Made by a program: the position numbers and the translations under genes
Virus record (IMG/VR): IMGVR_UViG_2531839450_000015
Reading direction: 5' to 3' (one strand)
Source: a virus
Taxonomy: Duplodnaviria > Heunggongvirae > Uroviricota > Caudoviricetes
Length of the DNA stretch: 44,713 bases
Part shown: positions 31,978-37,754 of the stretch, piece by piece
How positions within the stretch are numbered: position 1 is the first letter of the stretch
Layout: every line of letters begins with the position of its first letter
Notes under the pieces: model-generated
What the model was told of the DNA's origin: nothing
The model's database searches: none
What the model saw: only the letters and a program-made list of their open reading frames with translations

Positions 31978-32133
31978 TTACTCCTCAGGTTCGTAAACTG
32001 TGAAGACAGCGACCTCCGTCTGGCCGGTTCGGATTCGTACCTCGCAGAGGTCTTTCCTCGTTACCAGTGCCGTCACTATGACGGTTAAACAGATGACGAT
32101 CAGGGCGATTAACATCGCCTTTTGCTGCTTCAT
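31978..32133 (-). CDS. hok: Hok/Gef-family type I toxin
   Basis: MKQQKAMLIALIVICLTVIVTALVTRKDLCEVRIRTGQTEVAVFTVYEPEE is essentially the HokD/RelF sequence as I recall it. AAGGAG SD upstream. An overlapping upstream in-frame extension (to 32190) corresponds to a mok-like frame. Confidence 0.85.
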   Translation of the reverse strand: MKQQKAMLIALIVICLTVIVTALVTRKDLCEVRIRTGQTEVAVFTVYEPEE

Positions 32134-32542
32134 AGCCTGCTTCTCCTTGCCTTTCGGCACGTAAGAGGCTAACCTAGATTTGCCGTTCATAGATTGAGCC
32201 TCAGATTAATGTTAAGCGTCTTGCAGGACGCATAATGTTAACTGGGGCTTTTCTCTATCTGCCTTTGGTGTTCATGCTTGAGGCAGATAGCCTCAAGCAC
32301 CCGCAGCAATTTTACTTAACTCCCCTTTTCCCACAAATCGTTTTTATCCCTATTGGTAATGTTCTCCCGATGTGGGATTCCCACATTGGAACGAATTCAA
32401 TCAGTTAAAGACTCATCAGAATCTCACCTTTCTAAGTGCCCACAGGTGAGGCATTGCAATAAAAATAGCAAACGTGTATAAAAGGAGGTAATGCATGTTT
32501 TTCCAGTCTTATCAATCCATTACTGAGAGTTAAGGGGGCGCC

Positions 32543-33337
32543 GTGGATCGGTGCGGTAATTATTTACTTAAAGATGGTCGCAGTTTAGGACAAGGGAGTT
32601 TTGGCGAAGTATTTAAGGTTGATGTCTATAACTTAACCCAGACCCACATGACCACATATGCTCGCAAATACTTTTCACCTTGCCCGGACTTTGACAAGAC
32701 CGCTATAAAAGAGTTGACTGATTTAAGACAGCGTTTTTTAGTTGAGATCAAAACACAATGCACTCTCAATAGAATAAACTATGATTCAATAGCGCCAATA
32801 GTTTTATTTAATACAAATGGTGATAAACCTTATTTTGTTATGGAATTGGCAGAGTGTAATTTATATGAAGCCATCCGCAATGGTATGAATTACGCGGAGA
32901 GGAAGTCTGCTGTTACTCAGATTTTAAAAGGAATTATCACCATACATGAAAACAACTATATACATCGTGATTTAAAACCAGGAAACATACTTTATTATGC
33001 CGATGGAAAGTATAAAATATCTGATTTTGGTCTAGTAAAAGACAGAGATACCTTACGGGCCGAAATCAAAACAAAATTTAAGCCTAATCACATGGGCACA
33101 GATGGATATCGAGCGCCCGAAATACATGATAGCGGTCTTTTTTCTTTTCAAAGCGACATATTTGCAGCAGGTAAAATTATCACTGATATATATCCCACAG
33201 AAAGAAGTGAAAAATTAAAAAGATTGATTGCAAAATGTTGCGCACATTGGCCTGAAGAACGATATCAAAGCACACGGGAGTTACTGGAAGATTTTTTAAA
33301 AGTGACGGGGGAGGTAAATCATGAAGAACATAATTGA
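32543..33337 (+). CDS. Hanks-type (eukaryotic-like) Ser/Thr protein kinase
   Basis: Complete kinase signature set: Gly loop GQGSFGEV, lysine in YARK, catalytic loop HRDLKPGNIL, DFG (ISDFGLV), APE (GYRAPE). GTG start in the track; an in-frame SD-led ATG lies at 32495 but is followed by TAA. Confidence 0.85.
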   Translation: MDRCGNYLLKDGRSLGQGSFGEVFKVDVYNLTQTHMTTYARKYFSPCPDFDKTAIKELTDLRQRFLVEIKTQCTLNRINYDSIAPIVLFNTNGDKPYFVMELAECNLYEAIRNGMNYAERKSAVTQILKGIITIHENNYIHRDLKPGNILYYADGKYKISDFGLVKDRDTLRAEIKTKFKPNHMGTDGYRAPEIHDSGLFSFQSDIFAAGKIITDIYPTERSEKLKRLIAKCCAHWPEERYQSTRELLEDFLKVTGEVNHEEHN

Positions 33338-34036
33338 AATGGCATGTTTTAGCCTAAAACAACCCCAAAAAAAGAAAATGAAGACTTTTATTTACCGCCA
33401 TCTTTTGATAGCGATTTTAACATTGTCTTTGCAGTAGCTGATGGGGTTGGTTCCTCTGAACATTCAATGCTTGCATCTCATGCAGCCATTCGTGGCATTA
33501 GACACACGCTAGGCACTTCCTTTTTCTCAATTGAAAGTGCATTTCATTCAGCTAAAAAAGAAATTGACAATTTAGATATTAGCACTGCCACAACCTTAAC
33601 AATTGTTCAGATCAAAAAAAATGAAGTGTTAATTGGTCATTCCGGTGATTGCCGAGTATACTTCAATAAAAACAATAAACTAAATCAGTTAACCACTGAT
33701 CAAACGAGATATCAAGAACTCCTTGATTCTGGTGAACATAAATTACGTAATTTAAGAAATCATAAAGAACGGCTATCTTCAGTCCTAACGAATGCTTTAT
33801 CAAATACAACGGATTTGAATTTTGAGTTAATGTCTTTTCCGATTAGCCAGCTAATTTATAATGGCTATCTTCAACTCTATGCAATGACTGATGGTGCCTA
33901 TAAGCATTGGGATGTCAGACCAAGGTTTTCTGAGAAGACAATGCTCTCACCAACAGCTTTTGCGAGTAGTTTAAGAAAAAGGATTGAGAAAAACATAATG
34001 GATGATTACACCTTTATAGGCGTAAAAGTAACCTAA
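33321..34036 (+). CDS. PP2C-family Ser/Thr phosphatase; start and body are in different frames (requires -1 shift at 33368..33374, or is a frameshift pseudogene)
   Basis: Body frame shows the PP2C motifs KKENED, FAVADGVGS, GHSGDCRVYF, AMTDGAYK and DDYTFIGV. That frame has no start codon upstream of the conserved motifs. The SD-led ATG at 33321 is in the 0 frame and meets the body frame at A_AAA_AAG. Confidence 0.6.
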
Positions 34037-34672
34037 TTTTAGATATCCAAGATATTTACTCTAATTTAACCATAGTATTCCCAACCTCTTTTTATTGGGG
34101 GTTGGGTTCATTAAAGTCACCATTTTCTATTTCTTTCCCGTTAGAGGATATATTATTTCCAGATAAAGAAAGCAACTTCTTATGCAACTTCATATCACGC
34201 CATGCTTCCACCGCGGTAACTCTACATAGTCCATTAACAGTTCATGCCATTCTTCAAAACTGGCGTTATATTTAGTTGAAGCAAAATCAGCCATTTTATT
34301 CTTCCTCTTCGTCTTTTATTTCGTGATATGAGTAATTGCAGTAGTTAAAGAAAATATCTTTTGCTTCGTCATGTATTTCATCAGGCGTCGCATCATCATC
34401 CACTTCGAATTCATCCTCGAAATCTCCACCGGCTATTCCCGTTTCAATAATTATTTTGAACTTTCGCATTTAACTACCGCCCTGCCGGACAGCCTCCTGA
34501 TGTTCTGAGGGTGCCCCCCCTCCGGTTAAGGATTAAATTTTTAACAGTGCTAAATTTAATTATTCAGTTCTTGATTTTGTCGCCCTGCGTATCCGCGCTT
34601 TCGCGTTACGCTCAATCTGAATTAGCTTTTCTATATTTTTCCGCCTTTCCTGTTCCTCCTGGAGCAATAACC

Positions 34673-36578: not shown

Positions 36579-37004
36579 TCAATGCACAGCCACAATATTT
36601 CCTGCAGGGCCACCACGATTCATCTGGTTGAAACCAGCGATCGCCACTGCGACAAAATCATCAGCGTCTCTCACCAGTCGTTCCCGCGTCTCCACTAGTT
36701 CCCGAAAATAGGCTGAGCTATGACTGCGCATTCGGGCCACCAGCAGAGGTGGCATTGCTTTTTCGATAGCTGGTAACAACGCCTGAATTTTTTTAACCGC
36801 ATCAGGGGTGTCTTTCTCCACCCAGCGGAAAATTTTCTGAGTATTGCGAGCCAGGGCTTCCGGATGGCTGTCGTCATACAGTTCCGGGAACGTCATTCCC
36901 AGCTCGAAATACGCTTTGGTAATTTTCGCAGCCGGTACTTTTTCGCCGTCCGGATGCGCCCAGGCATTCATCGCCATGCGGATGTGTTCATGCTTGATTT
37001 TCAT
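36579..37004 (-). CDS. YdaT-like protein (cII-position regulator of Rac-type switches)
   Basis: 141 aa directly downstream of, and overlapping, the cro-like gene, mirroring ydaS-ydaT of Rac. Assignment is by position and size. Confidence 0.5.
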   Translation of the reverse strand: MKIKHEHIRMAMNAWAHPDGEKVPAAKITKAYFELGMTFPELYDDSHPEALARNTQKIFRWVEKDTPDAVKKIQALLPAIEKAMPPLLVARMRSHSSAYFRELVETRERLVRDADDFVAVAIAGFNQMNRGGPAGNIVAVH

Positions 37005-37255
37005 GAATCAACTCCCATCAGCTTTTTCGTAGTAGTTTTATTCCTGCCAATAGTTAAAATTGCATCGGCAGAAAATAATCCGTTTGATGCAAGAGCGATT
37101 TTTTCAGCGTAATTTGTTTCGCCGGTATATTCTGTGCGAGGCAATTTTCCGTTATCCATCCATTTATAGATTGCTCTTTGGCTGACACCACAAACGTCGG
37201 CCACAACAGCAACGCGAACAGTTTTGATTACATCTTCAAGTGTTTTCTGGTTCAT
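37001..37255 (-). CDS. Cro-like HTH regulator (YdaS-like)
   Basis: Start refined to ATG at 37255 (MNQKTLEDVIKTVRVAVVADVCGVSQRAIYKWMDNGKLP), an HTH motif. Divergent from the repressor gene. Confidence 0.65.
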   Translation of the reverse strand: MNQKTLEDVIKTVRVAVVADVCGVSQRAIYKWMDNGKLPRTEYTGETNYAEKIALASNGLFSADAILTIGRNKTTTKKLMGVDS

Positions 37256-37334
37256 ATCACCCTCACAATGTGAACTTTGAGTACATGCTATAACAGAACT
37301 GACAGTACATTCAAGAGCGAATATCATTGAACTT
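37256..37334. promoter_or_regulatory. Divergent promoter/operator region of the immunity switch
   Basis: 79-bp AT-rich spacer between divergent regulators. Repeated AGTACAT and TGAACTT motifs. Confidence 0.45.
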
Positions 37335-37754
37335 ATGGTTCATGAAGATAAAGCGCGTAAAGAGTTCGCCAGTAGGCTTGCGCTAGCCTGTGAAAACGCT
37401 GGTTATGAACAACATGGAAGGCAGGCAGAAATTGCCCGTCGAATGAAATTAACACCAAAAGCGGTTAGCAAATGGTTTAATGGCGAAACAATTCCTCGCC
37501 GGGAGAAATTAAGGGAATTAGCAACACTAATAGGAACAACACCAACCTATCTTTTGGGAGAGGATACAGAAGAAAGTGGACAGGTACGTTTCTATCAAGA
37601 GTTAAATCCAAGACAAAAAATCATCATTGACCTTCTGGACGAGCTCCCTGACAGTGAGACAGATGAACTTTTAAAAACTCTTGAAGAGAAAAAACAGAAG
37701 TACAATGCAATTTACGAAGAGTTAGCACGAAAGAAAAAACAAAAAGCCTCTTAA
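37335..37754 (+). CDS. Prophage repressor, XRE/CI-like HTH (RacR-like)
   Basis: HTH (QAEIARRMKLTPKAVSKWFNGETIP) at the N-terminus. Divergent from the cro-like gene. Confidence 0.75.
   Translation: MVHEDKARKEFASRLALACENAGYEQHGRQAEIARRMKLTPKAVSKWFNGETIPRREKLRELATLIGTTPTYLLGEDTEESGQVRFYQELNPRQKIIIDLLDELPDSETDELLKTLEEKKQKYNAIYEELARKKKQKAS

Follow-up and report, generated by a model that had tools for sequence, protein, structure and literature searches.

The IMG/VR virus record IMGVR_UViG_2531839450_000015 (Caudoviricetes), a stretch of 44,713 nucleotides referred to here as the window, carries a gene for a Hanks-type Ser/Thr protein kinase directly followed by a gene for a PP2C phosphatase, both within a cargo cassette (32350–34204, 1855 bp) beside the hok/sok locus of a Qin-like lambdoid prophage of E. 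coli. Comparison with homologous loci shows that two enzymes of opposite activity, catalytically complete as judged from their conserved residues and predicted to be translationally coupled, are transferred as one unit together with their own regulatory DNA, and that this unit moves, as far as sequence comparison can tell, among known hotspots for cargo and defence genes in temperate phages, P4 satellites and small integrative elements. At a probability of about 0.5, we favour the view that this mobile, self-contained cassette with its own promoter acts as a phosphorylation-based anti-phage or toxin–antitoxin module. A role in defence or exclusion is the best reading that we infer from the genomic context of the cassette and from its analogy with the KKP systems discussed below.

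The kinase and the phosphatase

The kinase gene (32543–33337, plus strand; 795 bp) encodes 264 amino acids from a GTG codon that is preceded, 5 nt upstream, by the Shine–Dalgarno sequence AAGGGGG. The original prediction, made from the nucleotide sequence and its open reading frames (ORFs), had let the pair begin at 32370; the true kinase start is the GTG at 32543, and the extra 170 nt correspond to a 5′ leader and promoter. The same prediction listed a full set of catalytic signatures, and in this it was right, since all of them are present: LGQGSFG (G16/G18/G21), YARK (K42), HRDLKPGN (141–148), DFG (161–163) and APE (191–193). The protein matches Pfam Pkinase (PF00069) with 110.3 bits (cut-off 31.7, E=1.4e-31). 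In an alignment of 26 homologues, with identity down to 36%, G16/G18/G21, K42, E68, H141-R142-D143-L144 and N148 are invariant or at least 90% conserved, and D161-F162-G163, A191-P192-E193, D205 and R240 are likewise invariant or nearly so. The sequences HRDLKPGN and GTDGYRAPE are the Ser/Thr-type, not the Tyr-type, versions of these kinase motifs. The enzyme belongs to the RD kinases, and its activation loop, which is disordered, contains Thr residues.

Structure prediction, which had been proposed as a check, yielded a confident kinase fold. The AlphaFold2 model has a mean predicted local distance difference test score (pLDDT) of 87.7 and a predicted template modelling score (pTM) of 0.86, with disorder only at the activation loop (171–178) and in the last seven residues. 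The top Foldseek matches in the Protein Data Bank (PDB) are ordinary protein kinases, with template modelling (TM) scores of 0.7–0.76, and at least 2000 PDB kinase chains match the model at E≤0.001. Only kinase-domain Pfam models score above threshold, and the kinase fold fills the whole protein. On the strength of its motifs and its predicted fold, the protein is thus a real Hanks-type (eukaryote-like) Ser/Thr protein kinase with complete catalytic residues, and it is predicted to be active. It is identical in Escherichia coli O103:H2 12009, in the enterotoxigenic E. coli (ETEC) genome ETEC1730 and in IMG/VR copies, and is the same in carriers of either phosphatase allele, A7 or A8, described below. 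A short G+C-rich hairpin (GCGCCG...CGGTGC, 32538–32557), flagged by a terminator scan, encloses the GTG start; its fold energy is no better than that of shuffled sequences, and it could modulate translation initiation.

The second gene is an intact reading frame of 717 bp (238 amino acids) in most carriers, O103:H2 12009 among them, and its ATG (33321 in the window) overlaps the kinase stop by 17 nt. Among 28–29 homologues, D22 (in the motif NED), D41-G42 (ADGVG), G109-D110, D191-G192 and D228-D229 are invariant; D22, D41, D191 and D228-D229 represent the metal-coordinating Asp residues of motifs I, II, VIII and XI, and in PPM phosphatases such residues hold the binuclear metal centre. The AlphaFold2 model of the repaired protein is a confident PPM β-sandwich (pLDDT 94.6, pTM 0.92), and its best PDB matches are the bacterial PPM phosphatases MsPP, PstP, tPphA and Stp1 (TM 0.72–0.78). 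Accordingly, judging by residue conservation and modelling, the PP2C (Pfam PF13672, PF00481) is real as a gene family and its catalytic residues are complete in the intact allele, but the copy in the window is frameshifted. The protein also matches the PHROG family phrog_5650, a phage family without assigned function, at profile positions 273–517 of 565 only, that is, in the C-terminal half, which suggests that some phages encode larger, possibly fused proteins with such a PP2C.

The homopolymer tract in the phosphatase gene

Intact alleles contain the run CCCC-A8-G. In the window, alignment and comparison of A-tract lengths place an A7 homopolymer at 33367–33373 (plus strand), and because the A8 tract is reduced to A7, frame 0 ends after 38 codons at a stop codon at 33435–33437. 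The translated 5′ fragment (33321–33437, plus strand) reads MKNIIEMACFSLKQPQKK, beyond which, by alignment with the intact alleles, the residues up to the stop are out of frame; the remaining coding sequence (33374–34036, plus strand) continues in the −1 frame from ENEDFYLPP... to the stop. The sole conventional ORF for the phosphatase in the window (33467–34036) begins downstream of both NED (D22) and ADGVG (D41), so that these two residues come into frame only when the A7 frameshift is overcome. At the near-identical locus of ETEC1730, the NCBI Prokaryotic Genome Annotation Pipeline (PGAP) calls the gene from an ATT start, corresponding to position 33422. The ORF 33467–34036 scores 18.8 bits against Pfam PP2C_2, under the cut-off of 24 bits, as compared with 41.5 bits (E=1.4e-10) for the repaired 238-residue protein, which also matches the NCBIfam Stp1/IreP model (E=8.6e-19). 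The earlier statement that the ORF after the kinase carries the PP2C motif set therefore holds for the reading frame, or repaired gene, and fails for any conventional ORF; the frameshift had been overlooked. Likewise, the profile search that had been suggested for both proteins places the kinase as encoded, and the phosphatase only once repaired.

The kinase/PP2C pair is present in 33 of 5,426 complete E. coli genomes. Thirty of these 33, and seven IMG/VR copies, have A8. The A7 tract occurs in the window, in three complete ETEC genomes from a single study (ETEC1730, ETEC1717 and ETEC1718) and in the IMG/VR provirus IMGVR_UViG_2529292906_000015. The window differs from ETEC1730 by two single-nucleotide polymorphisms in 2101 nt, and is thus a separate assembly with the same A7. 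The PP2C gene has a second A8 tract (33614–33621 in the window), and in the provirus just named both tracts are A7 (at about 4500 and about 4740 of its locus). Such a double contraction looks like the signature of homopolymer miscalling, which lowers our confidence that the A7 of the window is a real mutation: it may be either a lineage-specific mutation or a recurrent sequencing artefact.

In the A7 allele, the tract and the next G read, in frame 0, A_AAA_AAG (33368–33374). This is a −1 slippery heptamer of the dnaX/IS911 type. As read from the sequence, a −1 slip on it would give ...QPQKK-ENED..., the exact wild-type protein. A search 3′ of the heptamer for a stimulatory structure found no more than a weak stem of 6 bp at long range (z = −1.8), and upstream of the heptamer there is no Shine–Dalgarno-like stimulatory element; for want of a convincing stimulatory element, we do not claim programmed frameshifting. 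The window copy may accordingly represent either a phosphatase-deficient or strongly down-tuned allele, or a homopolymer sequencing error.

Alternatively, the locus in the window may be a decaying remnant, with a phosphatase pseudogene and a kinase that is silent or irrelevant. This would be consistent with the loss of D22 and D41 from any conventionally initiated product and with the recurrence of the same lesion in three ETEC genomes and one provirus. We nevertheless consider it quite unlikely, since the kinase is 100% identical to that of strains with an intact pair and the PP2C frame is otherwise uninterrupted, with divergence at the synonymous level only. In addition, both the miscalling signature of the provirus and the capacity of a −1 slip to restore the wild-type product argue against decay.

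The cassette, its insertion sites and its relatives

The cassette is variable DNA between conserved prophage flanks. Its G+C content is 36.2%, as compared with 49.4% in both flanks, in agreement with its earlier description as AT-rich. Homology with phage vB_EcoS-640R1, which has both flanks in common with the window, ends at 32349 and restarts at 34205; at the same site that phage carries 793 bp of other cargo with unrelated small ORFs (locus L102, 2652–3444). The earlier claim that Qin carries relBE at this place was borne out by direct inspection: in K-12 Qin (locus L185, 5347–5873), relB–relE lie immediately beside hokD on the same backbone, which comprises ydfU-rem-hokD ... dicC-dicA-ydfABC-dicB. 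The prophage flanks of the slot are matched by more than 4,000 complete E. coli genomes. By its deviant composition, its sharp homology edges and the other cargo found in relatives, the cassette is a moron, or hotspot cargo, as far as sequence criteria define one. It has been acquired horizontally into a Qin-like lambdoid prophage beside hok/sok, and the slot beside hok/sok in such prophages is a variable cargo site occupied by relBE, by the kinase/PP2C pair or by small ORFs.

As originally noted, the pair is opposite in strand to the surrounding phage genes, forming a plus-strand island in a minus-strand block that reaches from near position 1 to 37327, and the cassette runs antisense to the early-right operon. 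By eye, a promoter-like element can be read at 32454–32482 (plus strand; TTGCAA, 17-nt spacer, TATAAA). A strict scan for the σ70 consensus detected no promoter 5′ of the kinase gene and, overall, fewer sites than in shuffled sequences; it missed TTGCAA-N17-TATAAA because the −10 hexamer ends in A. The predicted element gains weight from a P4-borne copy of the cassette (locus L091), which, in an unrelated context, has the same arrangement (TTGCGC-N17-TATAAA) and retains roughly 55 nt of the 5′ leader. At the other end, a terminator-like hairpin is predicted at 34080–34106 (plus strand), 44 nt 3′ of the PP2C stop, with a 10-bp G+C-rich stem and a weak U tail (UUCAUU); the RNA fold of 34037–34130 has an energy of −21.3 kcal/mol (z = −2.57). 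Upstream terminators are also seen just 5′ of the cassette copies of Cronobacter phage phiES15 and of Vibrio. With its own promoter-like element, a conserved leader and a hairpin, the unit therefore looks transcriptionally autonomous, at least by these predicted signals. A 12-codon ORF in the leader (32495–32533, MFFQSYQSITES) has the near-perfect Shine–Dalgarno sequence AGGAGG 6 nt upstream and stops 9 nt short of the kinase GTG. It was considered as a conserved regulatory leader peptide and rejected: it is absent from the P4 copy and from other homologues, and its Shine–Dalgarno sequence lies upstream of the predicted transcription start.

The hok gene reported next to the pair is indeed there: the left neighbour is a hokD/mok toxin ORF (31978–32190, minus strand; Pfam HOK_GEF, E=6.4e-22), overlapped by the hok/sok regulatory RNA region (32128–32302, minus strand; Rfam RF01794 sok, 112.5 bits, cut-off 59). 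Both belong to the conserved flank, outside the cassette. The right neighbour, also part of the conserved flank, is a DUF7167 gene (34296–34469, minus strand; Pfam DUF7167, E=7e-15, and PGAP annotation). Further to the right, PGAP annotation of the near-identical ETEC1730 locus identifies, in the immunity and replication region, a YdaT-family 'toxin' (36579–37327) and a YdaS/Cro-like regulator (37335–37754), followed by dicB, ydfB and ydfC, an early region of the Qin/Rac type.

Homologues of both proteins consist of the bare domain (about 255–265 residues for the kinase, 235–250 for the PP2C) and occur in Enterobacterales, Vibrionaceae, Aeromonas, Shewanella, Acinetobacter and Pasteurellaceae. 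Among 1.84 billion representatives, a profile search recovered only 61 PP2Cs at E≤1e-30, with a sharp drop after about 20, and on this evidence the PP2C is a small, distinct subfamily set off from the general PP2C continuum. Generic kinases dominated the output of a contig scan based on the kinase alignment, because one of its patterns was the universal HRDLKxxNIL; only one locus (L004, Pseudomonas koreensis, 36% identity) looked family-related. PP2C patterns confirmed 134 IMG/VR loci, of which 80 were fetched, and in 77 of these 80 a kinase homologue lies immediately upstream of the PP2C on the same strand. The same holds for every cellular context inspected and for the isolated phages Flotzy and phiES15. 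Kinase followed by PP2C is thus, judging from these loci, an obligate, order-conserved pair across the Gammaproteobacteria.

The contexts themselves vary widely. In P4-like satellites of E. coli, Klebsiella, Salmonella and Enterobacter, the cassette lies between psu and int, with a kinase 84% identical to that of the window; the psu–int interval is an anti-phage hotspot of P4 (Rousset et al. 2022). In a Xenorhabdus prophage it is found between Rz and HNH/terminase genes, in Vibrio on a small integrative mobilisable element with Mob_Pre and integrase genes beside a P4-like element, and in Acinetobacter on the chromosome. The Dickeya copy lies beside YafO/antitoxin and an Enterobacter copy beside TacA/TacT. 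Among isolated phages, the cassette occupies the interval from Rz to terS in Escherichia phage Flotzy, and that from Q to the lysis genes in phiES15, the position of stx in Shiga toxin (Stx) phages. The P4-borne variant (loci L091–L094; PP2C 82% identical) is common to E. coli, Klebsiella pneumoniae, Enterobacter roggenkampii and many Salmonella enterica serovars; for Salmonella, many entries are partial sequences cut by the end of a contig. The kinase of the window is encoded, in exactly this sequence, on at least 1000 public contigs, and carriers include clinically important lineages of Shiga toxin-producing E. coli (STEC), namely O103:H2 12009, O145:H28 RM13514 and some O157:H7, O45 and O121.

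A census of the two nearest genes on either side, based on Pfam matches at about 61 non-redundant viral loci, found upstream lysozyme (17), Rz (11), Q (10), RusA (6) and regulators of the cI/S24/YdaS/N/Cro type, and downstream the small and large terminase subunits, DUF1441, holins and integrase. The predominance of lysis, Q, immunity, terminase and integrase genes indicates that the cassette has repeatedly landed in the classic slots of morons and exclusion genes. The same neighbourhood might hint that the pair benefits the phage during lytic growth, the kinase remodelling or disarming the host in the manner of T7 Gp0.7 and the phosphatase limiting or timing the effect. Lysis and terminase genes are the commonest neighbours, and three copies of the pair, those of Flotzy, phiES15 and the Xenorhabdus prophage, run in the same direction as the late operon and follow Q or Rz; moreover, the T7 kinase is reported to disarm defences broadly (PMC13645617). 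This explanation appears very unlikely to us, however, since in the window and in all close E. coli relatives the cassette runs against the early-right operon, so that lytic transcription would oppose it. Furthermore, the copies at the P4 hotspot and on chromosomes serve no lytic programme, and upstream terminators together with an own promoter are hallmarks of morons.

The distribution bears in a similar way on the possibility of a regulatory switch, in which the balance of the two enzymes would set the phosphorylation of a host nucleoid protein, a phage repressor or another regulator and thereby tune the maintenance of lysogeny, the induction of the prophage itself or of co-resident ones, or, as lysogenic conversion, host physiology. 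KKP has such a second role, through phosphorylation of MvaU (PMC11341870). Some viral copies of the cassette lie in the immunity region beside cI/N/Cro-type genes, and the STEC carriers are polylysogenic, with the flanks of the slot found at up to 6–7 places per record. Yet the same cassette is found in P4 satellites, in Vibrio mobilisable islands and on the Acinetobacter chromosome, and no DNA-binding or partner gene travels with it. Cargo of such different elements and hosts would hardly depend on a partner-specific regulatory target, and we regard a regulatory switch as unlikely.

Possible role and relation to known systems

If the cassette is a phosphorylation-based defence or toxin–antitoxin module, its operation may be pictured as follows. 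Repression of the convergent phage PR operon in the lysogen would allow the cassette to be expressed from its own promoter, and on prophage induction convergent transcription would oppose it. PP2C would continuously reverse both the autophosphorylation of the kinase and the phosphorylation of its substrates. An infecting phage, or loss of the element, might then tip the balance, for example if the phosphatase is inhibited or titrated or if the kinase is directly activated. The freed kinase would phosphorylate many host and/or phage proteins, and growth or phage development would stop. The resulting logic would be that of abortive infection or of a toxin–antitoxin system, as in KKP and Stk2.

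Several observations weigh against such a role. An intact kinase stands beside a frameshifted phosphatase in the window, in three ETEC genomes and in one IMG/VR provirus. This combination fits poorly with strong toxicity of a kinase left without its phosphatase, although it may stem from a sequencing error or from −1 frameshifting at a low level. Neither Pfam nor the AlphaFold2 model reveals a sensor domain in the kinase, which is a bare kinase domain. Many copies point the same way as the late genes and lie among those for Q, lysis and terminase, an arrangement that is also compatible with a role in the lytic cycle of the phage itself. Finally, PADLOC yields no match for the PP2C and generic kinase-domain matches for the kinase, and the searchable literature yielded no functional study of a kinase–PP2C phage cassette with two genes.

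Should the cassette nevertheless prove to be a working defence or toxin–antitoxin module, it would be the simplest phosphorylation-based immune system known, with one bare kinase and one phosphatase in 1.5 kb of coding sequence, and it would offer a tractable model of how a sensor-less kinase is triggered by infection. Since the cassette is not a PADLOC 2.0 system, current censuses of defence systems probably miss it. In STEC prophages it could shape superinfection, the behaviour of co-resident prophages and perhaps the dynamics of Stx phages. It also represents a third type of cargo, after relBE and small ORFs of unknown function, for the slot beside hok/sok, a hotspot that appears worth mining. 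The cassette is a good and cheap candidate for experimental validation as a defence or toxin–antitoxin system.

The closest parallel is offered by KKP (PfpC–PfkB–PfkA), which is carried by Pf6 and by many P2, P4 and Mu-like prophages (Guo et al. 2024, PMC11341870). There, toxicity resides in the kinases, and the PP2C, PfpC, serves as the antitoxin; Gp59 of T4 inhibits the phosphatase and thereby activates defence, and four KKP modules were shown to give E. coli protection from T4 and T-odd phages (PMC11341870). Besides this, KKP has the regulatory role mentioned above. As in KKP, a Hanks-type kinase and a PP2C_2 phosphatase are borne here by prophages and satellites and occupy the same cargo slots, including the psu–int interval of P4. 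KKP is, however, defined as a triplet of PP2C, kinase and kinase, with genes of 900–1300 bp and with FHA (PfkB) and cold-shock (PfkA) fusions, and the kinase with the cold-shock domain (CSD) is called its defining feature (PMC11341870). In contrast, the present cassette consists of two genes, kinase (795 bp) then PP2C (717 bp), in all homologous loci, and its kinase of 264 residues is bare, without FHA or cold-shock domain and without a second kinase. We therefore do not assign it to KKP, from which gene number, gene order and the missing FHA/CSD fusions set it apart; the distinction is one of architecture, not of sequence comparison.

The supplementary tables of Rousset et al. 2022 (PMC9122126) contain KKP-like triplets ('Pkinase | Pkinase | PP2C') at 10 loci of the P4/P2 hotspot catalogues, and the construct pFR102 of that study is described as 'Phosphatase + kinase + kinase'. 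They also contain at least one 'Pkinase + PP2C' cargo in a P2 hotspot (WP_029392161 + WP_029392160), untested in that study (PMC9122126), which may or may not belong to the family described here. The original prediction held that a kinase with a cognate PP2C in such a region could not be placed. This overstated its novelty: PGAP already names both genes correctly in 33 complete E. coli genomes, and KKP was published in 2024 (PMC11341870). The cassette is less unprecedented than was then supposed and, after KKP, unsurprising to the specialist; it is a minimal kinase–phosphatase cargo module, itself uncharacterised.

Other kinases implicated in defence are more distant; the kinase-only systems PD-T4-6 and Stk2 offer a second precedent for the proposed logic. 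PADLOC profiles of PD-T4-6 (E=1.2e-32) and Stk2 (E=2.6e-25) match the kinase domain of the cassette, the matches covering the kinase part only (16–202 of 327 for PD-T4-6, 162–360 of 500 for Stk2). Both are reportedly kinases with an abortive-infection type of defence, Stk2 in Staphylococcus epidermidis, as Depardieu et al. are said to have found in 2016, and PD-T4-6 in E. coli, a finding attributed to Vassallo et al. in 2022. Both are single-gene systems with extra domains and no cognate phosphatase, PD-T4-6 for instance having 436 residues, of which about 150 lie C-terminal to the kinase domain, whereas the kinase of the cassette is bare and has an obligate PP2C. Confined to the kinase domain and set in a different architecture, the profile matches do not make the cassette a member of either. 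The PADLOC profile mad6 also matches the kinase domain; membership of MADS was rejected, no other MADS component being present and the PP2C lacking a PADLOC match.

It is tempting to speculate that the cassette represents a minimal two-component immune switch distinct from KKP, Stk2 and PD-T4-6, with a sensor-less kinase held in check by its cognate phosphatase alone and the phosphatase serving as the guarded, phage-sensed part. The A8 tract at codons 17–18 would then act as a slippage-prone dial, −1 frameshifting on A7 setting the phosphatase:kinase ratio and hence the trigger threshold. This proposal is tentative, and we would not expect it to hold in full.

The comparison with Stk of the Stx phage 933W, which had been raised before, stands as that with a mere distant analogue. 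Stk, said to have been studied by Friedman et al. in 2011, is reportedly expressed in the lysogen and implicated in the exclusion of HK97. It is likewise a eukaryote-like kinase encoded by a lambdoid prophage. Nevertheless, Stk has 347 residues and HFD for HRD, it shares 27% identity with the present kinase over 197 residues of the C-lobe (E=5e-10, pairwise), and stk lies in the cI–N immunity operon without a phosphatase partner. With identity limited to the C-lobe, a divergent HFD and another locus, the two do not belong to one family, and their relation is that of the kinase superfamily.

A last comparison concerns the chromosomal pairs PknB/PstP and Stk1/Stp1, to which E. coli YegI/PphC may be added as another chromosomal kinase/PP2C signalling pair. 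The cassette differs from PknB/PstP and Stk1/Stp1 in having no PASTA or transmembrane sensor domains and in residing on mobile elements rather than in conserved chromosomal operons, and although the best NCBIfam matches of its two proteins are the Stk1- and Stp1-family models, their scores are far under the cut-offs (88.9 versus 450 and 68 versus 230 bits, respectively). The enzymatic logic is nonetheless the same, and the PP2C model resembles PstP and Stp1 structurally.

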